Positions 12,981-26,603 of a DNA stretch of 64,000 bases are shown here, in pieces (position 1 is the first letter of the stretch; the number at the start of each line of letters is the position of its first letter). Location of the stretch: the NCBI GenBank assembly GCA_018825385.1, contig JAHJEX010000074.1:997-64996 (forward strand), written 5' to 3'. The translations under genes and the position numbers were made by a program. The notes beneath the pieces were generated by a model. The model had not been told where the DNA came from. It searched no databases and saw only the letters and a list, made by a program, of their open reading frames with translations. The DNA is from Patescibacteria group bacterium (lineage in GTDB: Bacteria; Patescibacteriota; Patescibacteriia; UM-FILTER-42-10).

Positions 12981-14639
12981 CTAGATTTTTTTTACCATAT
13001 ACTCATCCTCAAGCTGATATCCTAGCTTTCGATAATAGTCCCTTACTCCAATTCCGGAAATAACGGCTATTTTTTTGTATCCATTTTTTTTGGATAGTTT
13101 TTCGGCCTCATCCATAAGACGTTTCCCGAAACCTATGTGTTGTGTTCTACCTTTTTTTGTTGATAATGGGATCATTTCTCCGTATGTGTGTAATTCTCGT
13201 AAAAGTGATGCATTCTGTAAGGCACAAATGTAATGATCTTTATTTTTGTCTTTTGGAAATCTTAATCTACAAAAAGCAAAGATAGTAGAATAGTCTTTTG
13301 ACTCGTAGCTCAAAAATATTTCAGTGCCACCAGATGCTTTATATACTCTTTTTACCAGTTTTACATTTTTCTGAGATACCTTCATTCCTCTTGCTTCTCG
13401 ACATCTTATACATCGGCAGAATTTTTCCTCATGTTTAAGCTCATTTTGAATTATCTGACGAATATTTGTAATCTTCATTCCTCCGGAAATGCTTTGTTTC
13501 GGTATATCTCTAAAAAGCCGTGCTATACGAACATATGGCGGGCAAAGTAATTTGATTTCCTTTAGCAGTGCTTTTAGCTTGTTGTCTGAATAGGGCTTAT
13601 ATATTCCGTTTTTCCATAAGTCATATAGCTTAGAGTATTTAGAAACTATGGTCGGATAAATTTTTATTTGATCAGGCTGGAAGTCAGGGTTTGTGAAAAT
13701 CTGCTTAAACATCTCAACATCTTCCTTCGTGGTCGCCTTATATAGTCCTGGCATGAGATGATATGTAATCTTGAATCCCGCATCCTTATACAATTGAGTA
13801 GCCCTAATTGTAGCTTCGACTTTATGACCGCGCTTATTAAAATCCAAAATGTGATCATGAATACTTTGTACACCCATCTCAACACGAGTTGCACCCAACT
13901 CACGCATTAGGTGAACCTCTTTTTTACTTACAAAATCCGGTCTAGTCTCAAGCGTTATACCCACAACCCTATCTTTTGCTGTTTCGTTAAGCTTTTGAGC
14001 TCGTTTCAACTTAGCCATTATTTGATTTCTTCTTTTTTTCGTTTCTAATATACTCTTTACCTCTTTTATTTCATTCACATCAGCTCTGCTTCTTCTACTG
14101 CTTGAAATCCCATCATTAAATGCGTCAAAACATCTCTTTAGATACCAAATCTGGTAAAGAGGATTGTGATAAGACCAAGTCCCACCCATTACAATTAATT
14201 CACACTTGTCAGTTGGATGGCCATTTTCATAATAGGCTCTCAATCTTGTCCTTACCATTTTATAGGGATCAAATTTCTGTGCCATGGACCTCATTACAGC
14301 AGGTTGTGTCGAGAGATAGCTTTTTGGCATGTCATTTTCTGTAGGGCAGTAAATACATTTACCCGGGCAAGGAAGCGATTTTGTGTGTACGCCTATTGAA
14401 GCAATCCCAGAAAGTGTTCTAATGTCACGTATCCTTAAAGCGCGAACAAAATTATTGTTCTTCTTAGTTATTCCCTTATTAACCAATTGCCGGTAATGCG
14501 CTAAAATAAGATTATTGGTATAAAAGGGGATTTGATGTTTCTTAGAAAACTGTCTTTTAAATCGATAAAGATCCCGCCTTCCCTTCAGATCGGCTTTAAT
14601 GGCTTCGGTCACAAATTGTGTAATAATTTTTTGAGGCAT
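12981..14639 (-). CDS. elp3: Elp3-like radical SAM + GNAT enzyme (tRNA wobble-uridine carboxymethyl-type modification family).
   Basis: Radical SAM cysteine cluster CPGKCIYCP. ELIVMGGTW. C-terminal GNAT/HAT block VISGIGVRDYYRKLGYQLEDEYMVKKI, close to the Elp3 C-terminus. 552 aa. Confidence 0.8.
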   Translation of the reverse strand: MPQKIITQFVTEAIKADLKGRRDLYRFKRQFSKKHQIPFYTNNLILAHYRQLVNKGITKKNNNFVRALRIRDIRTLSGIASIGVHTKSLPCPGKCIYCPTENDMPKSYLSTQPAVMRSMAQKFDPYKMVRTRLRAYYENGHPTDKCELIVMGGTWSYHNPLYQIWYLKRCFDAFNDGISSSRRSRADVNEIKEVKSILETKKRRNQIMAKLKRAQKLNETAKDRVVGITLETRPDFVSKKEVHLMRELGATRVEMGVQSIHDHILDFNKRGHKVEATIRATQLYKDAGFKITYHLMPGLYKATTKEDVEMFKQIFTNPDFQPDQIKIYPTIVSKYSKLYDLWKNGIYKPYSDNKLKALLKEIKLLCPPYVRIARLFRDIPKQSISGGMKITNIRQIIQNELKHEEKFCRCIRCREARGMKVSQKNVKLVKRVYKASGGTEIFLSYESKDYSTIFAFCRLRFPKDKNKDHYICALQNASLLRELHTYGEMIPLSTKKGRTQHIGFGKRLMDEAEKLSKKNGYKKIAVISGIGVRDYYRKLGYQLEDEYMVKKI

Positions 14640-15383
14640 ATGAATAAGAATACAGCAGATTCAATATTAGAAAAAGTAGCGTCCGACTATAATAACATAG
14701 CGGGCCATTTTTCCCAAACTCGGTATAGAGATTGGGCTGAGTTTTCTGATTTTGAAAAGTTTCTAAAAACAGGTGTATCGGTTCTTGATGTGGGGTGCGG
14801 TAATGGGAGGCTTCTGCATTTCCTGAACAGATACAGAGTTAAGTATGTTGGTATTGATGTGTCATCAAAATTACTAAAGATTGCCAAGCAATTAGTGGAT
14901 GAAAAAATATGCACTTCTATAACAAGCCATAGCTTCATTGAAGCTTCTGCTGAAAAGCTCCCATTTGCTGATAGAACATTCGATATTGCATTTGCAATTG
15001 CGAGTCTATATCATATTCCATCAAAAGAGCTTCGCCAACGCTCAATAAATGAAATATCACGTGTTTTAAAACCAGGCGGTGTGTTTATTATGACTTATTG
15101 GAATATGTGGGAACGATCCAGAAGGACATTGATATACAACAACATTACTGACAAACTTGTCGGCAAATCCAATCTGGATTTCTTTGATGCTAATAAACCT
15201 TGGAAAAATCCAAAAGGTCAGGTGCTTGCTGAGAGGTTTTGCCATGCCTTTACCTTAAGGGAGATTGAGAGACTGTCGAAAAAAAGTAGTTTCAGAACTG
15301 TCGATAAGTATTATATGAAAAAGGGACAAAAATCCAATTCAAAGTATGGCTTTAACGGTGTATATATAGGAAAGAAGTATTGA
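14640..15383 (+). CDS. Class I SAM-dependent methyltransferase (Methyltransf_11), Trm9/ALKBH8-MTase-like.
   Basis: YNNIAGHFSQTRYRDW, SAM motif I VLDVGCGNGRLL, post-I acidic D, AIASLYHIPS...ISRVLKPGG, TYWNMWERSRR. I recall these blocks resembling yeast Trm9. The start was set to the Met at 14640, directly abutting the divergent elp3 start. Confidence 0.65.
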   Translation: MNKNTADSILEKVASDYNNIAGHFSQTRYRDWAEFSDFEKFLKTGVSVLDVGCGNGRLLHFLNRYRVKYVGIDVSSKLLKIAKQLVDEKICTSITSHSFIEASAEKLPFADRTFDIAFAIASLYHIPSKELRQRSINEISRVLKPGGVFIMTYWNMWERSRRTLIYNNITDKLVGKSNLDFFDANKPWKNPKGQVLAERFCHAFTLREIERLSKKSSFRTVDKYYMKKGQKSNSKYGFNGVYIGKKY

Positions 15384-15408
15384 CAGAAGCCGAAAAATAT
15401 GCTAGACT
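15380..15408 (+). promoter_or_regulatory. Sigma70-type promoter (TTGACA-17-TAGACT) for the first L,D-transpeptidase gene.
   Basis: TTGACA at 15380-15385, a 17-nt spacer, TAGACT at 15403-15408. About 150 nt upstream of the ATG at 15563. Confidence 0.4.
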
Positions 15409-15562
15409 AGTACTATAGTTCATTCCAAAACAAAAATAAAAAACAAAACCAGAGGCTAGAGATGGCCTCACAGAAATCATAAAATTCGAAATCAATATCG
15501 AAAAAAATGGGGCTGTCTCTGGCCTATTTCTATATCTCTTAAAAAGGCCAACAAAAACAAAA

Positions 15563-16990
15563 ATGCAAAATCACAGAGTAAAAATTAAAATTTTGGTGTT
15601 GGCAGTACTGGCAAGTACTGTTTTTTTGATACCTAAAATCGTACAAGCAACAGAGTCACGTGCACCAGAACTACGTATTTTTAATTCCAATAGCTATTCG
15701 GTCGACAAGGCATTTATGGTTTTTGATGAAAACTTTCAGGGTGGCGCATCCGTCGCGATAGGTGACCTTCAGGGAAATGGAACAAATGAAATAGTTGTTG
15801 CACCGGGTCCTGGAGGAGGTCCACACATTAAAATTTTTAAATCAGATGGAACTTTTATTTCAAGCTTTTTTGCATATACCTCTGGCTACAGGAAAGGTGT
15901 GAATATTGCAGCGGGAGATTTGGACGGAGATGGCAAGGATGAAATTATTGTTAGCACTCGTTATGGAGCAACGCCTCATGTCAGAGTTTTTGATGGCAAT
16001 GGTATTCCAAAGTTCACATGGGGATTTTTTGCATACCAAGAAAATTTCAGAGGAGGTGTAAATATTGCAGCCTGTGATGTTGACGGTGATGGAGAGAAAG
16101 AAATAGTAACAGGTGCGGGGCCGGGCGGTGGACCACATGCTCGTGTATTTGATAAAGATGGCACTTATGCGGGTCTGGATTATTTTCCGTTTGCATCAGA
16201 TTTTCGAGGAGGAATTTCTGTAACCTGTGGCAATGTAGATGGCGGTGCAGAAGAGGAGGTAATTTTTAGTGTTCAGACCTCAGATGAAGCATGGGTAAAG
16301 GTTTACAAAACAAATTCTGAGCAGACAGTCCTTGGAATGTTTCGTGCATTTCCAGAATCATTTCGTGGTGGCATAAATATAGCGAGTGGCGATGTTGATC
16401 GTGATGGGCTTGATGAGATAATTGTTGCAGCTAATACTGGCGGTGGCTCACATGTAAGATTTTTTGAGGCCTATGGTTTTCCACATCCCGATTCAATTTT
16501 TGCCTATGAAGATGAGTTCAGAGGTGGAGTCTTGGTAACAGCAGGCGATGCAAATAATGATTCTTATGATGAAGTTATCGTATCTCCAAATAGAAGATCT
16601 ACAGAAGGAAGAACTGATTTGGATAAATATATTGAAATAGATATTTCTGACCAACAATTAAACTACTATGAAAATGGGTATCTTGTTGACTCTACTCAGG
16701 TGTCTACAGGAAAGTGGTCAATGCCGACACCGTTAGGAACATTTAGCATTCAAAATAAGCATCCTCGAGCTTATTCTGCCACTTACAATTTGTACATGCC
16801 TTTCTGGATGCAGTTTGAGTCAAGGGGATATGGACTACATGAACTCCCAGAGTGGCCTAGTGGCTACAAGGAGGGTCAGGACCACTTAGGTATAAGAGTT
16901 TCACATGGTTGTGTCCGTTTAGGTGTCGGTCCAGCAGAGAAACTATATAGCTGGGCAGAAGTTGGCACTACTGTGATTGTAAAAGATTAA
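15563..16990 (+). CDS. Secreted FG-GAP/VCBS-repeat beta-propeller protein with C-terminal L,D-transpeptidase (YkuD) domain.
   Basis: Signal peptide. At least six repeats of the type GDLDGDGKDEIIV...GPGGGPHVRVF (Ca-binding DxDxDG). C-terminal LDT catalytic motif SHGCVRL. Confidence 0.75.
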   Translation: MQNHRVKIKILVLAVLASTVFLIPKIVQATESRAPELRIFNSNSYSVDKAFMVFDENFQGGASVAIGDLQGNGTNEIVVAPGPGGGPHIKIFKSDGTFISSFFAYTSGYRKGVNIAAGDLDGDGKDEIIVSTRYGATPHVRVFDGNGIPKFTWGFFAYQENFRGGVNIAACDVDGDGEKEIVTGAGPGGGPHARVFDKDGTYAGLDYFPFASDFRGGISVTCGNVDGGAEEEVIFSVQTSDEAWVKVYKTNSEQTVLGMFRAFPESFRGGINIASGDVDRDGLDEIIVAANTGGGSHVRFFEAYGFPHPDSIFAYEDEFRGGVLVTAGDANNDSYDEVIVSPNRRSTEGRTDLDKYIEIDISDQQLNYYENGYLVDSTQVSTGKWSMPTPLGTFSIQNKHPRAYSATYNLYMPFWMQFESRGYGLHELPEWPSGYKEGQDHLGIRVSHGCVRLGVGPAEKLYSWAEVGTTVIVKD

Positions 16991-17051
16991 TGTTGCCAAA
17001 AGATTATTTACGTGGTATAAGAGAACTATAAATAAGAATTAAGAAATATTT

Positions 17052-17351
17052 ATGCCAGGTGAACCAAAACCAGAACAAGAGTCTCCCCTTGATATTCCAG
17101 GACTTGTTTCAGAATTAGATGCGATTACTGCTCAATGGGGTGTCGAAGATCTAATGGAAAGAAATGAGGTTGCACTAAGGCAACGCGAATCTAAAGTTGC
17201 CACTGTAGTTGATAAACTTCTTAATTCTGACGTGACCGGTGAAAAAGAGCCAGCACTTCTAGAATCTGTAATAGGTGCAATTGGAATGTTCGATGGTCAG
17301 AGTACTACATTTAAACTAAAGGAGTTAAAAGCAAAATTAGAAGGGAAATAG
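17052..17351 (+). CDS. Small hypothetical protein (99 aa), paralog of the next gene.
   Basis: No signal peptide. Shares an N-terminal block (GEPKPEQ.../GEFKPDQ..., LVSELDAITAQW/LVSKIDQINDHW) and a C-terminal block (LLNSD...PELLESV.../LLNSD...PELLASV..., KAKLE) with the 17584 ORF. Confidence 0.5.
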   Translation: MPGEPKPEQESPLDIPGLVSELDAITAQWGVEDLMERNEVALRQRESKVATVVDKLLNSDVTGEKEPALLESVIGAIGMFDGQSTTFKLKELKAKLEGK

Positions 17352-17395
17352 TTAATACCGGCTCACTGGGAATGAGGAAAGAATCCAAGGAAACA

Positions 17396-17424
17396 TTGAC
17401 ATATCAGAAGATGTTTGATAAAAT
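17396..17424 (+). promoter_or_regulatory. Candidate sigma70 promoter TTGACA-17-TAAAAT upstream of the second small paralog.
   Basis: TTGACA at 17396-17401, a 17-nt spacer, TAAAAT at 17419-17424. This implies a ~150-nt leader. Confidence 0.3.
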
Positions 17425-17583
17425 TTCAGAATTGCTAGATTTATATAAAGAACTTTTCAATCTTGAGCGAATGCGAGCATTTGCCCCCCAAAAAAATATA
17501 ATCCACCTAATTAGATATTCTAATTCTAATATTGAGTAATTAATAAAAATTATTCTCTACAATAAACACTAACGATCAAATAT

Positions 17584-17937
17584 ATGACTGGAGAATTTAA
17601 ACCAGATCAAGGCGAACTCAATGTAGATGTACCTGCATTAGTTTCTAAAATCGATCAAATAAATGACCATTGGAAAGCTAAAGATGAAGGTACCGCGGAA
17701 ATTCCAAATGATTTACATGAGCAAGAACGGGAAATAGGTGCTCAATTGGAGCAGTTACTAAATTCAGATATTAGCGCTGAATCAAATCCAGAATTATTAG
17801 CATCTGTAAAAGCCGGTCTAATGTTTTTCGATAATGCAGATATTGCGAAAATCTTGATGAGAGTCGAAGCAAAGCTGGAGAGCAGGGATGTTGATGAAGA
17901 AGCTCTTGAAAAGCTTGGGGAGCTACCTTTACTATAG
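17584..17937 (+). CDS. Small hypothetical protein (117 aa), paralog of 17052..17351.
   Basis: Shares conserved blocks with the preceding small protein (see above). Acidic C-terminus. Confidence 0.5.
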   Translation: MTGEFKPDQGELNVDVPALVSKIDQINDHWKAKDEGTAEIPNDLHEQEREIGAQLEQLLNSDISAESNPELLASVKAGLMFFDNADIAKILMRVEAKLESRDVDEEALEKLGELPLL

Positions 17938-18033
17938 GATTTATAATAACCACCAATATAGAATTATAAAAGAAACATTTAGCCCACTCACAAATCCTGA
18001 GCACGAAGTAGTGAAATAGTATATAAATCAATT

Positions 18034-18058
18034 AAGAGGAGCAAGCTTCCTCTTTTTT
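18034..18058 (+). terminator. Rho-independent terminator after the small-protein pair.
   Basis: AAGAGGA / gcaagct / TCCTCTT hairpin (7 bp) followed by a T-run. Confidence 0.55.
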
Positions 18059-18087
18059 GATTACTCAAATTTTGGTACAATATAGAG

Positions 18088-19497
18088 ATGAAGAAACTTA
18101 TTATATTTGCAGTTGCAATTTTGCTTGCATTTCCACTATCTGTCTTTGCATATACAAAGACGCGTGCACCGGAGATTCGTGTGTTTGATTCAGATGGAGA
18201 GATGAAAAGAAATCTGACTGTGTACCCTGAAGATTTTTATGGAGGGGTTTCCGTTGCTTCGTGTGATATAGATGGAAACGGGAAAGATGAAATTATTGTG
18301 GGCGCAGGCCCGGGCGGTGGACCAAACGTAAAAATTGTCTGGCCCTATTCACTGAAGATAACCGGATTTCTGGCTTATGCAGAAACTTTCAGAAAAGGAG
18401 TAACAGTTGCCTGTGGCGATCTGAATGGTGATGGTGAGATAGAAATAGTTACAGGTTCAGGATCAGGAGGTGGACCACACATCAGAATATTTGATACCGA
18501 GGGAAATCAAAAGTTTACTCCGGGATTCTTTGCGTTTGGTGAAAATATGCGAGGTGGTGTAAACGTAGCTGTGGGTGATGTGGATGGGGATGGGAAAGAT
18601 GATATTGTCGCAGCACCTGGTTCATCCGGAGGATCGCATGTTAGGGTATTTAACTTTCGTGGTGATTATAAGGGGATAGATTTCTTTCCGTTTCGAGAGG
18701 GCGACAGGGGAGGAGTTTCGTTAGCTGTGGGAAACTTTGATGGTGGGCCGGAAGATGAGATAGTAGTAGCAGTAGAAAAGTTTGGCAAAGCTTGGACAAA
18801 GATCTATAAATTTAATGAATCAAGAACTATCCTTGGTGAATTTGATGCCTACCCCGATTACTTTGAAGGTGGAATTAGGGTAGGTGCGGGTGACGTGGAT
18901 AATGATGGATTTGATGAGGTGATTGTCGCTCCGACAAGAGCAGGTGGTCCACATGTTAGAATGTTTGAAGCACACGGTGAATTGATTGATAATTCCATAT
19001 TTGCTTATGAAGAAGATTTTCGAGGGGGCGTGAATCTTGCAAGTGGTGATATTACCGGAAATGGACAAGATGACATTATTACTGCCCCTGCTGGATGGTT
19101 CAGCGAAAACAGGCCTGATCATTATAAATATATTGAGGTTAACCTAACGGAACAGAAGCTCTATGCTTATGAGAATGATAAATTAGTGGATTCTTTTCTT
19201 ATCTCATCAGGAATTAAGGGAAAATATGATACGCCGATAGGAGAATACAGTGTGTTTCTGAAACGTGAATCCACTGATATGAGCTGGTTCTATGGTCCAG
19301 ATGATCCGGATAACTATGACTTAGAGGATGTGCCTCATGTTCTATCATTTTCAGGCGCATATACGATTCATGGAACTTATTGGCACAATAATTTTGGATA
19401 TCGAATGAGCCATGGGTGCGTAAATATGTCACGTGAGGATTCTGCCTGGCTTTATCAATGGGCAAATCTAGGAATTCCAGTTATTGTTCACGACTGA
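18088..19497 (+). CDS. Secreted FG-GAP-repeat beta-propeller + L,D-transpeptidase domain protein (paralog of 15563..16990).
   Basis: Signal peptide. The same repeat architecture (GDLNGDGEIEIV, GDVDGDGKDDIV). C-terminal SHGCVNM LDT motif. Confidence 0.75.
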   Translation: MKKLIIFAVAILLAFPLSVFAYTKTRAPEIRVFDSDGEMKRNLTVYPEDFYGGVSVASCDIDGNGKDEIIVGAGPGGGPNVKIVWPYSLKITGFLAYAETFRKGVTVACGDLNGDGEIEIVTGSGSGGGPHIRIFDTEGNQKFTPGFFAFGENMRGGVNVAVGDVDGDGKDDIVAAPGSSGGSHVRVFNFRGDYKGIDFFPFREGDRGGVSLAVGNFDGGPEDEIVVAVEKFGKAWTKIYKFNESRTILGEFDAYPDYFEGGIRVGAGDVDNDGFDEVIVAPTRAGGPHVRMFEAHGELIDNSIFAYEEDFRGGVNLASGDITGNGQDDIITAPAGWFSENRPDHYKYIEVNLTEQKLYAYENDKLVDSFLISSGIKGKYDTPIGEYSVFLKRESTDMSWFYGPDDPDNYDLEDVPHVLSFSGAYTIHGTYWHNNFGYRMSHGCVNMSREDSAWLYQWANLGIPVIVHD

Positions 19498-19509
19498 TAC
19501 TGTCGTTAT

Positions 19510-19538
19510 TTGATGATTATGTAATTATTGTGTATAAT
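19510..19538 (+). promoter_or_regulatory. Sigma70-type promoter TTGATG-17-TATAAT upstream of secD.
   Basis: TTGATG at 19510-19515, a 17-nt spacer, TATAAT at 19533-19538. Confidence 0.5.
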
Positions 19539-19583
19539 TTTTACAGTGTTTAACTAAACTTTTTTATTTTGATTAAGTAATAT

Positions 19584-21248
19584 ATGGGAATGCGCAAAAA
19601 GCTTTGGGTCAGCCTCCTGCTAATCGCAGTTTTAGCTGGTCTAGCTGGGTTGGTTGATTGGCCAAAAGGTCCTGATATAAGAATTGGGGATTATTTTAAG
19701 GAGATAAAAGTCCATCTCGGATTAGATTTGCAGGGAGGAACTCATTTAGTTTACAAAGCTGATACAGTCGATATTCCTTCCTCTGAAAGGACAGAAGCGA
19801 TAGAAGGAGTTCGTGATGTTATAGAAAGAAGGGTTAACTCTTTTGGTGTTTCAGAACCGGTAGTCCAGACGAATAAATCAGGCGATGAATACAGGGTGAT
19901 CGTTGAACTTCCAGGAGTAACTGATGTAACTCAGGCAATCCAAATGATAGGGGAAACGCCTTTGTTGGAATTCAGAGAGCAGGCGGCACCAGAATTCGAT
20001 GAAGATCAAAACCAGGCAATGGAAGCTTATAATGCTGACGCAAGGATTAGGGCTGAAGAAATATTGTTAGCTGCTTTAGATGATGCAAACGACTTTGCTG
20101 AACTTGCAAAGGAAAAAAGTGAAGGTCCGTCAGCAGAAAGCGGTGGGGATTTAGGTGAATTTGGCCGCGGTGCTATGGTTCCGGAGTTTGATGAGGTAGT
20201 TTTTGAGAAAGCTGAAGTCGGAAAAGTCTATCCAGAATTAGTAGAAACCATGTTTGGCTATCATATTATAAAGGTTGAGAACAGAATAACGAGTGTGAAT
20301 GATGAAGGCGTGGAGGAAGAAAAAGCTACTGCGCGACACATTTTGGTTCAAATACAGTCTGAAGAAGCTGCGGCCTCGACAAATTATGTAAACACAGGTC
20401 TTTCCGGAAAACATCTAGATAGCGCTCAAGTACAGTTTGATCAGTCCACCGGACAGCCGGAAATAAATCTTAGGTTTAATAGTGAAGGAAAAGACTTATT
20501 TGCTGAAATAACAAAGCGTAATTTAGGAAAGCCTGTAGCAATCTATTTAGATCATGCTCCAATAAGTATTCCAATTGTCCAGGCAGAAATAACATCTGGG
20601 GAAGCGGTAATAACTGGCAGCTTCACATTGGAAGAGGCAAAAATACTTACAAGAAGACTTAATTCTGGTGCACTGCCAATTCCGATTTCACTTCTAAATC
20701 AGCAGAATATTGGCGCAACATTGGGACAGGAATCAGTGGAAAGAAGCTTGTTTGCAGGAATACTAGGGCTAGTTCTAGTTGCCATATTTATGATTGCATA
20801 TTATCGACTGCCAGGTTTACTATCAGTAATTGCATTAACTATTTATTCCCTGCTTGTGCTCGCAGTATTTAAACTGTGGCCAGTTACATTAACGCTTGCT
20901 GGAATTGCTGGATTTATATTATCTATCGGTATGGCCGTTGATGCGAATGTACTTATTTTTGAAAGATTAAAGGAGGAATTAAGACGTGGAAAGCCAATAC
21001 TAAGTGCAGTTGAAGATGGATTTAAACGCGCGTGGCCATCAATACGAGATTCAAATGTTTCATCACTCATTACGTGTGTTATTCTTATTTGGTTCGGCAC
21101 AAGCTTAATTAAAGGTTTTGCAATAACATTAGGAATCGGAATACTGCTTAGTATGTTTTCAGCAATTACTGTCACCAGAAATTTCCTAAGAATTTCTGCA
21201 CTCAAGAAATGGAAGGGTTTTTGGTTGTTTGGAGTAAAAAATAAATAG
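19584..21248 (+). CDS. secD: Protein-export membrane protein SecD with an inserted parvulin (PpiC-type) PPIase domain in the periplasmic P1 region.
   Basis: SecD N-terminal and C-terminal TM blocks (LDLQGGTHLVY..., GIAGFILSIGMAVDANVLIFERLKEE). Residues ~140-225, NDFAELAKEKSEGPSAESGGDLGEFGRGAMVPEFDEVVFE...FGYHIIKV, align almost motif-for-motif with E. coli PpiC/parvulin. Confidence 0.85.
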   Translation: MGMRKKLWVSLLLIAVLAGLAGLVDWPKGPDIRIGDYFKEIKVHLGLDLQGGTHLVYKADTVDIPSSERTEAIEGVRDVIERRVNSFGVSEPVVQTNKSGDEYRVIVELPGVTDVTQAIQMIGETPLLEFREQAAPEFDEDQNQAMEAYNADARIRAEEILLAALDDANDFAELAKEKSEGPSAESGGDLGEFGRGAMVPEFDEVVFEKAEVGKVYPELVETMFGYHIIKVENRITSVNDEGVEEEKATARHILVQIQSEEAAASTNYVNTGLSGKHLDSAQVQFDQSTGQPEINLRFNSEGKDLFAEITKRNLGKPVAIYLDHAPISIPIVQAEITSGEAVITGSFTLEEAKILTRRLNSGALPIPISLLNQQNIGATLGQESVERSLFAGILGLVLVAIFMIAYYRLPGLLSVIALTIYSLLVLAVFKLWPVTLTLAGIAGFILSIGMAVDANVLIFERLKEELRRGKPILSAVEDGFKRAWPSIRDSNVSSLITCVILIWFGTSLIKGFAITLGIGILLSMFSAITVTRNFLRISALKKWKGFWLFGVKNK

Positions 21249-22276: not shown

Positions 22277-23431
22277 ATGAGCGACCAAAGTTCAATTCTA
22301 GATAAAGTTATTAACTCAAAACAAGAGGCAGAAATTGAGGGATTCAGTCCTAGCGAGACCGTTTCTTTATTGTTGAAGTATCTAACAAACAAGGAAGAAG
22401 ACGTTCTAAGACGTCGATTTGGGTTAAACGGTCAAGCAAAAGAGACGTTGGAGGCTATTGGGAAGGCATATAACGTTACTCGTGAGAGGATTCGGCAGAT
22501 AGAAAGCTCTGCGATCAAAAAAATTAAGGGATTAAGAGAATTTGGAGGAGTATCTACAGATTTTGAGCACACCATTTCAAATGTACTTGCTCGCAACGGC
22601 GGGATTATGGATGAAAATTCGCTTTTGCGGGAGTTACTAAATTTTGCCTCAGACAATCCGCTAAATAATAATTGTGCGGTATTTATTTTGGAGGAACTAG
22701 TTTCTAAAAAAATAGTCCGTGTGCCAGCATCGACTAGCGTTGAAAAGTCATGGAGCCTTCCCCATGTTTCAATGGATTTTGTTAATGAAACAATTGGACA
22801 ATTGATTCGAATTCTTGAGAATGATGACAAGCCACTAAAGCTTGATGAGCTTTTAGAAAAGTTTCACCAAACTGACTATTATGCAGGCAAGAATGAAGCT
22901 CTGACAGATGAAGGTAATCATTCTTACATAAATTTAAGTAAAAAGATTGATAATAATCCATTTGATGAATATGGATTAGCAAAGTGGGGATCAATCAACC
23001 CTAAGCGGATGAAAGATAAAATATACCTGGTTTTGAAGAAAGAAAAAAAGCCATTACACTTTAATAAAATTACTGATCTAATAAACAAGGTTAAGTTTGA
23101 TAGACGAAAGGCATATCCACCAACTGTTCATAACGAATTAATTCTGAATAATGATTTTGTCCTAGTTGGTAGAGGAATATATGCGCTTAAAGAATGGGGC
23201 TATAAACCTGGCGTTGTTTCGGATGTGCTGATAAAAATCCTCGAAAAAGCTGATAATCCATTATCAAGAGACGAGCTAGTCAAACGCGTGCTTGAACAGA
23301 GGGTTGTTAGGAAAAATACGATTCATTTGGCGCTTACGGATAAAACCAAGTTTACGAAACTTCCTGATAAACGCTATTCCCTAAATAGCGAAACGCCTGA
23401 TCAGGAAGTTGTAGAGCCAACATCTATTTAA
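22277..23431 (+). CDS. Sigma-70 region 4 (HTH) domain protein with C-terminal HARE-HTH-like winged helix. Putative DNA-binding regulator.
   Basis: Residues ~30-85, EEDVLRRRFGLNGQAKETLEAIGKAYNVTRERIRQIESSAIKKIKG, closely match RpoD region 4.2. The C-terminal block KIYLVLKKEKKPLHFNKITDLI...FVLVGRGIYALKEWGY matches the HARE-HTH / RpoE-delta N-terminal pattern. Confidence 0.6.
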   Translation: MSDQSSILDKVINSKQEAEIEGFSPSETVSLLLKYLTNKEEDVLRRRFGLNGQAKETLEAIGKAYNVTRERIRQIESSAIKKIKGLREFGGVSTDFEHTISNVLARNGGIMDENSLLRELLNFASDNPLNNNCAVFILEELVSKKIVRVPASTSVEKSWSLPHVSMDFVNETIGQLIRILENDDKPLKLDELLEKFHQTDYYAGKNEALTDEGNHSYINLSKKIDNNPFDEYGLAKWGSINPKRMKDKIYLVLKKEKKPLHFNKITDLINKVKFDRRKAYPPTVHNELILNNDFVLVGRGIYALKEWGYKPGVVSDVLIKILEKADNPLSRDELVKRVLEQRVVRKNTIHLALTDKTKFTKLPDKRYSLNSETPDQEVVEPTSI

Positions 23432-23440
23432 TATTCAAAA

Positions 23441-24883
23441 ATGGAAATTTCTATAGATCTTACATCATTGGTTGAACGTGGTGTACAGAATCCGCTTGCA
23501 CTTGCATGGTGGATTTTTGTAAAAGGTGGCTGGGTCGTTTTTTTGATAATTTTTATGGTGGGATTGTATTTTGCGAAGCTTGAGCATGCAAGGAGAAAAT
23601 ACCGAGAGACCGCAGAGCCAGTTTTACTAGCGCTGGATATTCCAAAGGAAAACGAGCAAAGTCTGAAAGCCATTGAACAAATATTTGCGCAGTTACATGC
23701 AAATGAATCCCATGCCAATAAGCTACAGCGATTTTGGCAGGGAAAGGTCCAGAGTCGGTATTCCCTTGAATTGGTAAGCATTGATGGATATATTCAGTAT
23801 TTGATCAGGTCTGATAAAGATAATAGAGATTTAGTTGAAGCAGCAATATATGCTCAATACCCAGATGCGGAGATTACAGAGGTTGGCGACTACACTGACT
23901 CTGTGCCAAATCAATTTCCAAACAAGGATTATGATTTGTGGGGAGCAGAGTTTGTGCTAGCAAAAAATGACGCATATCCCATTCGTACTTATCGTAATTT
24001 TGAGCATACTTTAACTCAAAAATTTGCTGATCCAATGGCTTCGCTACTTGAGGCTCTATCGCGTCTACAGCCTGGGGAACAGACGTGGTTACAGATAATA
24101 ATTACACCTACAGGGTCCGGATGGACCAAAAATGCGGATCGCCTGGTAAAAAAACTAATAGGAGAAAAAACTGCGAGAAAAAAGGGAATGCTTTCTCCGC
24201 TTGCTGACTCTGCAAAAGGTTTTGGCAATGAAGCGGTAAATCAATTGTTGGGGGGAAGTACAGGCTCAACAGAAAAAAGCAGTTCCGAAAAGGAGGAGCA
24301 GAACAAAATAAAATTTCTAACTGCTGGTGCTCAAAGTGTTGTCGAGGCAATTGAAGAAAAAATGGCAAAAATTGCATTTCGAACAAAAATTCGTTTGGTC
24401 TATATTGCAAAGAAGGAAATCTTTGATAAAAATCGAGGCGTGAGACCTGTAAGAGGAGCTATCCTACAGTATAACACTCAAAATCTCAATGCATTTGAAA
24501 CTCATAAAAAAACTAAAACAAAGGCTGATTACATAAGAGTTGATAAGCGAATTGCCCATAAGCAGAGAAAAATTTTACGAGCATATAAAATGCGAGCAAA
24601 TCACTTAGGGATTGGTGAAGGATTCATTATGAATATTGAGGAATTAGCAAGTATATTTCACTTTCCAATTGCAGAAATCACAGTTCCACCTGTTCAAAGA
24701 ACTGAAGTGCGTAAAGGAGGAGCGCCAACGACATTACCGCGTGAATTTATGTCCACATCCGGGATACCTCTCCAAACTCCAGGTGCAAAAATTGCAACTG
24801 ATCAGCCTATGCCAAGAGCAGGTATACCTGAAAATCTTCCTATAGAGATTAATAATACTGACGAATCAAAAGATGGTGAATAG
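23441..24883 (+). CDS. Bitopic membrane protein (one N-terminal TM, large soluble domain), function unknown. Candidate membrane partner of the downstream ATPase.
   Basis: Single ~25-aa hydrophobic segment near the N-terminus. No recognisable catalytic motif. Begins 10 nt after the upstream gene and overlaps the downstream ATPase by 11 nt. Confidence 0.5.
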   Translation: MEISIDLTSLVERGVQNPLALAWWIFVKGGWVVFLIIFMVGLYFAKLEHARRKYRETAEPVLLALDIPKENEQSLKAIEQIFAQLHANESHANKLQRFWQGKVQSRYSLELVSIDGYIQYLIRSDKDNRDLVEAAIYAQYPDAEITEVGDYTDSVPNQFPNKDYDLWGAEFVLAKNDAYPIRTYRNFEHTLTQKFADPMASLLEALSRLQPGEQTWLQIIITPTGSGWTKNADRLVKKLIGEKTARKKGMLSPLADSAKGFGNEAVNQLLGGSTGSTEKSSSEKEEQNKIKFLTAGAQSVVEAIEEKMAKIAFRTKIRLVYIAKKEIFDKNRGVRPVRGAILQYNTQNLNAFETHKKTKTKADYIRVDKRIAHKQRKILRAYKMRANHLGIGEGFIMNIEELASIFHFPIAEITVPPVQRTEVRKGGAPTTLPREFMSTSGIPLQTPGAKIATDQPMPRAGIPENLPIEINNTDESKDGE

Positions 24884-26603
24884 TAATGAAATAACAGTTT
24901 TCGCGGAAACTAATTTTCGTAACAAGAAAGTCAGATTTGGCATCAAAGAAGATGACCGAAGACGACATATATATTTGATTGGGAAAACTGGTGTAGGTAA
25001 ATCAAACTGTATCGAAAATATGGTGATTTCAGATATACAAAGAGGTCGTGGCGTTGCTCTTGTGGATCCGCACGGAGAATCAGTTGAAAAAGTAGTTAAG
25101 TATATCCCATCAAATAGAGTTAATGATGTTGTTTACTTTAATCCGTCTGATACAGAGCATCCTATTGCGTTTAATATACTTGAGGAGGTTAATCCTCAAT
25201 ATAAAAATTTGATTGCATCTGGGTTAGTTGGCGTGTTTAAAAAGATATGGGCGGACTCGTGGGGACCTAGGCTTGAGTACATTCTGATGAATACTATCTT
25301 AGCATTGCTAGAGAATCCTGGAAGCACTCTTTTAGGTATTACAAGATTATTGGTTGATAAGACTTACCGCAAAAAAATTGTTTCTAACCTCACTGACCCG
25401 ATTGTTAAGGCATTTTGGATTGATGAGTATGCAAACTATAATGAACGATTCAGAACGGAGGCAATTTCTCCAATACAGAATAAGGTTGGTCAGTTTCTTT
25501 CTAGCGCAATAATTAGGAATATAGTTGGACAGCCAAAAAGCACGATTGACATGAGAAACATAATGGATAAGAAGAAAATTCTTCTGATGAACCTTGCAAA
25601 AGGAAGGATTGGGGAAGAAAATTCTGCTCTTCTTGGCGCAATGATGATCACTAAGCTTCAATTAGCAGCAATGAGCCGAGTGGATGTCGCAGAGGAAGAT
25701 CGAGAGGATTTCTATTTATACGTTGATGAGTTTCAAAATTTTTCTACAGAAAGTTTTGCAAATATATTGTCTGAGGCGAGAAAATATAGATTGAATCTTA
25801 CTATTGCTCACCAATATATTGAGCAATTAGGTGACGTAGTAAAAGCAGCTGTGTTTGGTAATGTTGGTACCATTGTTTGTTTCAGGGTCGGCGCAGAAGA
25901 CGCTGAATTCCTCGAAAAAGAATTTGAGCCGTATTTTCTTCTGAATGATTTAGTAAATCTTCCAAAATATAATGTTTATATGAAACTGATGATTGATGGT
26001 ATTGCCTCAGCGCCATTCAGTGCAACAATTCTTCCGCCAATCCAGGGAGAAACTGGCAACCTGGAAAAAATTATTACATCATCACGTGAAAGATATGCTA
26101 GACCATTAAAAGTTGTTGAAGAGAAAATACTCAGATGGAGTGGCGTTGAGGAGATGTACAGAGGTGACGCTAATGAAGAAACTGTAACGAAGCCAGCTCC
26201 ACAGTACAAAAAGCCAGTTAGCAGTAGCAATAAAATCACTGAAAACAATGAACGTGTACCTAACGAAAGTAAATCAAAACCAAAATCTGTGGTAAAGATT
26301 TCGGAAGGTCCGGTCGAGCCTGAGATTGATCTGCCACCGACGGAAATCCGCCTAAATGATGCACTACAACAAGGTCCTGTTTCTTTTAGTGAATCAAGAA
26401 AAAGAAATCCAGTATCAACTCAAAATAGTAACAGAAAGCAAGGGGATAGAAACAGAAAGAAAAAACGTCGCAAACCGAAACCTCATCATGCTAAAGAACA
26501 AATTCCACGGTTAGAGCCAAAATCAGATAATGATCAAACCCTACAGCAACAATCTAACAATTATATCCTAGAGCAAGGAAAAAGTGTAAAGTTTGATAAG
26601 TAG
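24873..26603 (+). CDS. TraD/TrwB/VirD4-family (type IV coupling-protein-like, FtsK/HerA superfamily) P-loop ATPase, with no TM anchor and a basic C-terminal tail.
   Basis: Walker A LIGKTGVGKS and Walker B LYVDEFQNF. Overall ~400-aa NTPase core. No N-terminal TM helices. The last ~150 aa are K/R/S/P/Q-rich (NRKQGDRNRKKKRRKPKPHH). Confidence 0.7.
   Translation: MVNSNEITVFAETNFRNKKVRFGIKEDDRRRHIYLIGKTGVGKSNCIENMVISDIQRGRGVALVDPHGESVEKVVKYIPSNRVNDVVYFNPSDTEHPIAFNILEEVNPQYKNLIASGLVGVFKKIWADSWGPRLEYILMNTILALLENPGSTLLGITRLLVDKTYRKKIVSNLTDPIVKAFWIDEYANYNERFRTEAISPIQNKVGQFLSSAIIRNIVGQPKSTIDMRNIMDKKKILLMNLAKGRIGEENSALLGAMMITKLQLAAMSRVDVAEEDREDFYLYVDEFQNFSTESFANILSEARKYRLNLTIAHQYIEQLGDVVKAAVFGNVGTIVCFRVGAEDAEFLEKEFEPYFLLNDLVNLPKYNVYMKLMIDGIASAPFSATILPPIQGETGNLEKIITSSRERYARPLKVVEEKILRWSGVEEMYRGDANEETVTKPAPQYKKPVSSSNKITENNERVPNESKSKPKSVVKISEGPVEPEIDLPPTEIRLNDALQQGPVSFSESRKRNPVSTQNSNRKQGDRNRKKKRRKPKPHHAKEQIPRLEPKSDNDQTLQQQSNNYILEQGKSVKFDK

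Follow-up and report, generated by a model that had tools for sequence, protein, structure and literature searches.

A Patescibacteria locus with two propeller-bearing putative L,D-transpeptidases, clade-restricted small genes and a candidate regulatory leader

L,D-transpeptidases (LDTs) with a YkuD catalytic domain are known with several kinds of N-terminal accessory domain: mixed alpha/beta in Ldtfm of Enterococcus faecium, Ig-like in LdtMt2 and LysM in YkuD of Bacillus subtilis. Secreted bacterial propellers of the FG-GAP-like type are known from Bap1 of Vibrio cholerae and from YesW/YesX of Bacillus, where they are described as eight-bladed. The locus described here combines a YkuD domain with an FG-GAP propeller, and does so twice. 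It lies in a stretch of 64,000 nucleotides (nt), hereafter the window, from a Patescibacteria group bacterium (GTDB lineage Bacteria; Patescibacteriota; Patescibacteriia; UM-FILTER-42-10; assembly GCA_018825385.1, contig JAHJEX010000074.1, positions 997 to 64,996 of the forward strand). An earlier note had singled out four open reading frames (ORFs) in the window as a duplicated envelope-remodelling module of unusual architecture. All four were found where that note had placed them, on the + strand and in the order LDT1-s1-s2-LDT2:

15563-16990, + strand: LDT1, 475 amino acids (aa); predicted signal peptide at about aa 1-29, propeller at about aa 33-346, YkuD domain at aa 354-473
17052-17351, + strand: s1, a small gene, 99 aa; acidic with an isoelectric point (pI) of 4.6, all-helical, without signal peptide
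17584-17937, + strand: s2, a small gene paralogous to s1, 117 aa; pI 4.3, four to five predicted helices
18088-19497, + strand: LDT2, 469 aa; predicted signal peptide at about aa 1-21, six-bladed propeller, YkuD domain at aa 347-467

The block probably consists of two secreted propeller LDTs that belong to old subtypes, with dispensable small genes restricted to one clade inserted between them and a leader that controls LDT1.

The propeller L,D-transpeptidases

Both large proteins match the full length of the YkuD profile (PF03734) at 83.1 and 89.7 bits, against a Pfam cutoff of 23.4, and they align with each other from end to end at 44% identity (expect value, E, 2e-124). LDT1 was modelled with AlphaFold from 106 homologs, and the confident model (mean predicted local distance difference test score, pLDDT, 93.9; predicted template modelling score, pTM, 0.84) runs from an N-terminal helix (residues 2-22) through 24 propeller beta-strands to a YkuD fold. 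It agrees with the order of propeller and catalytic domain that had been read from the ORFs and that Pfam recovers far above its thresholds. The catalytic Cys and His, whose conservation the earlier note had presupposed, are indeed retained: H426 and S447-H448-G449-C450 of LDT1 are invariant in 106 of 106 aligned family sequences, and the catalytic domain is closest to that of Ldtfm (E 4e-14), with the His ('GIHD') and the SHGC motif aligned. In LDT2 the catalytic centre reads IHG, 15 residues, then SHGC. Both are putative L,D-transpeptidases with an intact His/Cys centre. Their N-termini, MQNHRVKIK-ILVLAVLASTVFLIP-KIVQA/TE in LDT1 and MKK-LIIFAVAILLAFPL-SVFA/YT in LDT2, are Sec-like: in each, a positive n-region and a hydrophobic h-region precede an AxA-like site (VQA/T and VFA/Y, the slash marking the predicted cut), and both proteins are predicted to be secreted through Sec signal peptides.

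The propeller is recognised by Pfam as FG-GAP (57 bits in LDT1, 65 in LDT2) and FG-GAP_3 (58 and 69 bits), all passing the thresholds, with four to five FG-GAP/FG-GAP_3 repeats scored in each protein. Each protein holds six repeats of 51-53 aa. Calcium-binding-type loops, as had been claimed, are present in both proteins: LDT1 has the strict DxDxDGxxD/E motif in three of its blades and LDT2 in four, and throughout the family blades 1, 2, 3 and 5 retain their acidic loop residues. The likeness to an integrin propeller did not hold in full, as the integrin alpha propeller has seven blades and this one has six.

A homologous propeller (39-47% identity over the propeller region) is fused to other enzymes in other Patescibacteria, namely to Peptidase_S8 subtilases, a Peptidase_M14 zinc carboxypeptidase and a Polysacc_deac_1 deacetylase and, weakly, to a GDSL-like domain that stays below the Pfam threshold. 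The M14, deacetylase and S8 fusions were found at L023 (2448-4181), L045 (3184-4818), L058, L067, L073 and P0063, where L denotes a locus and P a protein; the M14 and deacetylase fusion genes (L023 and L045) directly adjoin a propeller-LDT gene. Because the propeller has been shuffled among several envelope enzymes, we infer that it is a modular targeting domain of extracytoplasmic envelope enzymes. It would bind a wall or surface polymer and thereby position the enzyme, the role that LysM, PG_binding_1 or Ig-like domains play in other LDTs. Its ligand could be a polymer of the cell's own wall or the surface of a host.

The architecture is far from unusual. When 5.8 billion proteins were searched and 8,000 candidates scored, 4,299 of these matched at E <= 1e-5. 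Of the 120 matches listed, more than 100 align over 94-100% of the query with 40-87% identity; they share its Pfam set and its length of about 470 aa. Among the matches listed, the named ones are called 'L,D-transpeptidase family protein' and are assigned to Kerfeldbacteria or to the Patescibacteria group. With one genome scanned per species, at least 551 propeller-LDT loci were recovered, nearly all of them in Patescibacteria and including Kerfeld-, Falkow-, Uhr-, Kuenen-, Doudna- and Buchananbacteria as well as unclassified Patescibacteria. The window's own proteins are already held by NCBI (P0004 is 100% identical, and the small proteins are KKB10_02005 and KKB10_02010). In the literature searched, no paper pairs FG-GAP with either Patescibacteria or D-transpeptidase. 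Hence the family is catalogued yet uncharacterised, and what the present analysis adds is the count of six blades, the reuse of the propeller on several enzymes and a division of the LDTs into two subtypes.

This division is seen in the spacing between the catalytic His and Cys, which in the 106 sequences is either 15 residues or 23-27 residues. The short loop is followed by SHGCxN in 50 of 50 sequences and the long loop by SHGCxR in 56 of 56, without exception. LDT1 is of the long, R type (23 residues, SHGCVR) and LDT2 of the short, N type (15 residues, SHGCVN). Both types occur in many lineages, with 16 R-type and 48 N-type genes in distant loci; the tandem of R followed by N is confined to the window's own clade, and the few tandems of distant genomes are N-N. 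Within the clade both genes are under strong purifying selection, with approximate omega values of 0.03-0.12. LDT1 and LDT2 are thus best read as two old subtypes and not as a recent duplicate, and the small genes between them form a separate, clade-restricted insert. The reading of the block as a duplicated module fails on both counts, and it fails also because the gene order is LDT1-s1-s2-LDT2. The two subtypes are likely to differ in the geometry of the active-site lid and thus in their reaction or substrate on the cell's own wall; R-type LDT1 and N-type LDT2 would then carry out different L,D-transpeptidase reactions or act on different substrates there.

Expression signals and the candidate leader upstream of LDT1

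The element of the locus that was least expected lies outside the coordinates first noted. It occupies most of the spacer between LDT1 and the methyltransferase gene that precedes it, and it is listed here with the other expression signals of the block:

15380-15408, + strand: promoter-like site of LDT1; TTGACA, 17 nt, TAGACT, with the TG of an extended -10; 10 of 12 consensus matches
15412-15537, + strand: predicted structured leader; A/C-rich tract, long-range helix, U-rich tail
17396-17424, + strand: promoter-like site in the s1-s2 spacer; TTGACA, 17 nt, TAAAAT, with TG; 11 of 12 consensus matches
18034-18060, + strand: intrinsic terminator; hairpin at 18034-18054 followed by a T-run, closing the LDT1/s1/s2 unit
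18073-18081, + strand: extended -10 promoter of LDT2 (TGGTACAAT), ending 6 nt before the ATG

The spacer (15384-15562, 179 nt) retains 84% mean identity among five loci, compared with 43-57% at the third codon positions of LDT1; other spacers in the same five-locus comparison show 68% and 74%. It is thus better conserved than the LDT1 coding sequence. Its predicted fold is dominated by a long-range helix in which 15453-15470 pairs with 15508-15525 and which encloses a small TTCGA hairpin. With a minimum free energy of -32.4 kcal/mol (z = -5.1), it is more stable than all 200 shuffled sequences. In an RNAalifold consensus of 15 pairs over eight sequences, 120 of 120 cells are paired. The substitutions consist of four one-sided changes, all of them wobble-compatible on the + strand, and one double change. 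Two local hairpins, h1 and h2, considered as separate terminators, fit this variation worse than the long-range helix, in which no pair is broken. A scan of 15300-19700 against Rfam 15 at E <= 1 gave no match save a chance snoRNA inside the LDT1 coding sequence. A covariance model made from the eight sequences picks up weaker copies in two distant genomes, immediately 5' of propeller-LDT genes, at 35.6 bits (L014) and at 20.3 bits with several double changes (L100). The conserved element is a candidate cis-regulatory leader or attenuator of LDT1.

The remaining signals are more conventional. At LDT1 the extended -10 element TGCTAnnnT (15398-15408) is invariant in eight related loci. The site at 17396-17424, in the 232-nt spacer between the small genes (17352-17583), is the best sigma-70-like match of the region and is a consensus match only; promoter-like sites are no more numerous in the region than in shuffled sequence. 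A 55-aa ORF in the same spacer (17372-17539) is unsupported by relatives and is not claimed as a gene. The terminator hairpin folds at -13 kcal/mol (z = -3.6; none of 200 shuffles folds as well), and a hairpin of like position and shape is present in L001, L004, L006, L007 and L009. Where the small gene occurs, it always stands between the LDT1 stop codon and this conserved hairpin. Of the claim that each unit has its own promoter and terminator, the hairpin with its T-run was borne out. As regards terminators the claim is nevertheless inaccurate, since LDT1 and LDT2 have only this one found between them, and it follows s2. After the hairpin the segment TTTTGnTACAAT, with its 6-nt spacing to the LDT2 ATG, recurs in the window (18070-18090), L001 (7478-7500), L004 and L009. 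Since the -10 promoter ends 6 nt before the ATG, the LDT2 messenger RNA is probably leaderless. The folded leader would control the expression of LDT1, and LDT2 would be driven by its own extended -10 promoter.

The small genes and the rival explanations

The proteins encoded by s1 and s2 are paralogs without a recognisable domain, as had been proposed. They share 36% identity (E 1e-17), and neither is matched significantly by any profile of Pfam, NCBIfam, PHROGs or PADLOC, the WXG100 and toxin-antitoxin families included; the best matches to curated profiles (E 0.0013-0.1) stay below the cutoffs, and each involves one of eight members only. Only six firm family members emerged when 5.8 billion and 1.8 billion proteins were searched with profiles, and all six sit in one syntenic slot between LDT1 and LDT2. 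Two long repetitive proteins from profile searches (P0128 and P0130) were set aside as low-complexity artefacts. The distribution of copies in the slot is as follows:

Window: two copies
L004, L008/L098, L009/L096 and L011: one copy each
L001 (LDT1 87% identical to that of the window): no copy
L006 (LDT1 76% identical to that of the window): no copy
L007 (LDT1 74% identical to that of the window): no copy

A hidden Markov model scan of all ORFs of at least 45 aa in the fetched loci found no further copy, a homolog is present in none of 80 more distant propeller-LDT loci, and no analogous small gene lies between the tandem LDTs of the distant loci L015, L019, L023 and L036. Even near relatives differ: L008 carries the small gene and L006 does not, although their LDT1 proteins are 92% identical. 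The expectation of conservation and synteny is thus borne out for the single slot within the clade and fails for L001, L006, L007 and the 80 distant loci. Every subclade includes at least one carrier and the gene is always inserted at the same point, so the history that requires the fewest steps is a single gain in the ancestor and three or more subsequent losses; the linked copies, all at one orthologous position, represent a single evolutionary event.

The small proteins have diverged much more quickly than the proteins encoded around them: across the same comparisons, identities are only 28-42% for the small proteins, 69-92% for the LDTs and 83-93% for SecD. The pair with the least saturation gives an omega of about 0.29 for the small gene as against 0.078 for LDT1. 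That the small ORFs might not be genes at all is ruled out: the frame stays open across homologs of 28-42% identity, helix-phase motifs are conserved and omega is below 1. In s1 the stop codon is followed by seven in-frame codons (LIPAHWE) and a second stop, a stretch that resembles the C-terminal tails of homologs (...EWME), and s1 may have been truncated by a nonsense change.

Outside the slot, weak homologs were obtained with a three-sequence profile at E 1e-5 to 1e-4:

L012, 3151-3459: weak small-protein homolog
L093, 249-572: weak small-protein homolog
L094, 1007-1330: weak small-protein homolog

These three loci and the weak homologs P0127, P0129 and P0132 lie on contigs of 60-63% GC, beside genes for RNase J or ParB_N/RuvC and not beside LDTs. 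A closer homolog of s2 (85% identity in protein, 77% in DNA) occurs on a 1-kb contig of low GC (L095, 1-1053). There the similarity does not extend beyond the coding core; the flanks are unrelated and include a membrane-protein gene on the opposite strand, and the protein has a different N-terminus and a C-terminal extension of about 75 aa. This copy suggests that the small gene has moved between contexts. Metagenome and viral contigs scanned with s2 alone contained no relative, a scan with a four-sequence alignment of the small proteins retrieved the same syntenic locus only, and no repeats, integrase or mobile-element signatures surround the insert beyond short chance matches.

The small genes are therefore real genes of a narrow orphan family, restricted to one genus-level clade, with no demonstrated tie to the enzymes. 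Most likely they are dispensable accessory genes that share the transcription unit of LDT1 and are not obligatory partners of the enzymes. The small gene would have lodged between the LDT1 stop codon and the terminator in the ancestor of the clade; it would then have been lost repeatedly and evolved fast, leaving two copies in the window genome. Its product, helical, acidic and cytoplasmic-looking, would be a bystander in the LDT1 unit.

Three other explanations deserve to be set against this account. The small proteins might be dedicated partners of LDT1 that act in the cytoplasm on the propeller precursor, as a holdase or export chaperone ahead of Sec translocation, or that regulate LDT1 expression; the block would then be a genuine functional unit. 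Such a role would agree with the invariable place of the small gene inside the LDT1 transcription unit, before the shared terminator, with a Sec-rich neighbourhood (SecA, SecD, SecF) and with purifying selection on the small genes (omega about 0.3). We nonetheless consider it unlikely, as three close relatives keep both LDTs (74-90% identity) without a small gene in the locus, the small gene is found in 0 of the 80 distant propeller-LDT loci, the linked cases are positional orthologs that count as one event, and both the weak homologs and the 85%-identical one occur in other contexts. It is quite unlikely that the small genes are mobile or conflict-related cargo, such as an anti-defence, immunity or host-interaction factor, that landed in a permissive intergenic slot and turns over rapidly. 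Their patchy presence in zero, one or two copies, their rapid divergence among near relatives, the unrelated flanks of the L095 homolog and the position of the weak homologs near ParB_N, RuvC and RNase J genes on GC-rich contigs would all be accommodated by it. Yet there is no PHROG or PADLOC match above noise, no relative in the viral contigs scanned and neither flanking repeats nor an integrase, and the use of one slot throughout the clade speaks for vertical inheritance accompanied by losses.

The last explanation concerns the enzymes themselves. The propeller-LDTs could act on a host cell, with the propeller as a lectin-like adhesin and the YkuD domain remodelling, or linking to, the host's peptidoglycan during episymbiosis. 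Patescibacteria are described as largely episymbionts (PMC11665869). The FG-GAP propellers of the closest solved relatives, Bap1 and YesW, bind surface or matrix polysaccharides, and a like propeller is fused to secreted hydrolases. However, the genes stand in a conserved housekeeping envelope neighbourhood between the division and cell wall (dcw) genes with SecA on one side and SecDF on the other, the LDTs are under strong purifying selection (omega 0.03-0.12), and the fusion partners include typical enzymes of self-wall maturation, a deacetylase and a carboxypeptidase; action on a host is accordingly a very improbable explanation.

Several points also weigh against the account preferred here, that of two secreted propeller LDTs with a leader-controlled LDT1 and a dispensable insert. 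Secretion is predicted from N-termini read by inspection only. The fusion partners of the propeller would fit binding to a host surface and also to the cell's own wall. The covariation control for the leader is weak, and because 55 of 500 shuffles are as good, the covariation is no proof of constraint at the RNA level; moreover, the covariance model also matches an ordinary terminator (L050), so its weak matches are unspecific. The dS values are saturated in almost all comparisons and the omega values are approximate as a result. Lastly, 'dispensable' rests on absence within loci of 13 kb, and those genomes may carry a copy elsewhere.

A broader picture would tie these elements together. The propeller would be a targeting module specific to Patescibacteria, directed to the wall or a host surface and serving both LDT subtypes, the subtilase, the carboxypeptidase and the deacetylase; the R and N enzymes would catalyse different reactions, for instance 3-3 cross-linking in one case and the covalent anchoring of surface proteins in the other; a structured leader RNA not described before would control the R-type gene as an attenuator or riboswitch; and the small proteins would be fast-evolving modulators. 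As a whole this picture is speculative and has a low probability. A large part of bacterial diversity belongs to the Patescibacteria, and the building and remodelling of their envelope is almost unstudied by experiment. One propeller reused on several wall-active enzymes hints at the way in which these cells place their enzymes on the wall, the clean split of the LDTs into two subtypes offers testable hypotheses for the envelope biology of an uncultivated group, and the leader is a candidate for a new regulatory RNA tied to a cell-wall gene. Taken alone, the four-gene block is an unremarkable example of a family already catalogued, plus an inserted orphan gene of doubtful relevance.

Gene neighbourhood and comparison with known systems

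On the 5' side of the block the window encodes MraY, a PgeF-like protein, MurD, FtsW, MurG, MurC, MurB and SecA. Between SecA and LDT1 lie genes for an inositol-monophosphatase-like protein, an ELP3-like radical SAM protein (- strand) and the methyltransferase. On the 3' side LDT2 is followed by SecD, which carries an inserted PPIC rotamase domain, and SecF; then come a Sigma70_r4 + HARE-HTH protein, a protein without a Pfam match and a TrwB/HerA-like ATPase, and further 3' MnmA, AlaRS, S4 and RpoA. The gene order from the radical SAM gene to the DUF8128 gene is kept in all close relatives fetched, and a more distant genome (L099) retains the order SecA ... single LDT - SecD - SecF - sigma. 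Since gene order is kept in close relatives and in this distant genome, the LDTs occupy a stable housekeeping neighbourhood of envelope and secretion genes.

Some features of the flanking genes are recorded in their own right:

12981-14639, - strand: ELP3-like protein, 552 aa, with Radical_SAM and Radical_SAM_C domains; it adjoins the methyltransferase in all relatives
19584-21248, + strand: SecD, with a PPIC-type (parvulin/PrsA-like) peptidyl-prolyl isomerase inserted at residues 145-233
22277-26603, + strand: trio of the Sigma70_r4 + HARE-HTH protein, a 480-aa protein and the TrwB/HerA-like ATPase, kept downstream of SecF in relatives

The SecD architecture with its PPIC insert is common to all relatives fetched and to the distant L099. 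The 480-aa protein has no Pfam match in the window, and its counterparts in relatives carry DUF8128. The methyltransferase ORF is listed with a TTG start at 14532, which makes it overlap the ELP3-like gene by 108 nt; because relatives call a product of 247 aa, the true start is probably an ATG about 36 codons further in, at about 14640.

Compared with previously described systems, the nearest entries in sequence are database records such as Candidatus Kerfeldbacteria A3F54_04785 and like entries at NCBI and JGI, which match in length, architecture and full-length alignment; no difference separates them from the window's proteins, and they belong to the same family. Among studied LDTs, namely Ldtfm (PDB 1ZAT, 3ZG4 and 6FJ1), LdtMt2 and B. 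subtilis YkuD, the difference lies in the N-terminal accessory domain, which is here a six-bladed FG-GAP propeller. A further difference is the lid of LDT1, which is longer from His to Cys than in that group by at least eight residues. The integrin alpha propeller has FG-GAP repeats and calcium loops in common with the two proteins and, as noted above, one blade more. Among solved structures, only that of Bap1 is related to the propeller in sequence (E 7.5e-6), and Foldseek matches include Bap1 and YesW/YesX, at low TM-scores of 0.22-0.29 to the whole LDT1 model. Bap1 (PDB 6MLT) and YesW/YesX (family PL11) are likewise secreted bacterial proteins with calcium-binding, FG-GAP-like propellers that bind or cleave surface polysaccharides; unlike those of LDT1 and LDT2, however, their propellers are not fused to a wall-crosslinking enzyme.

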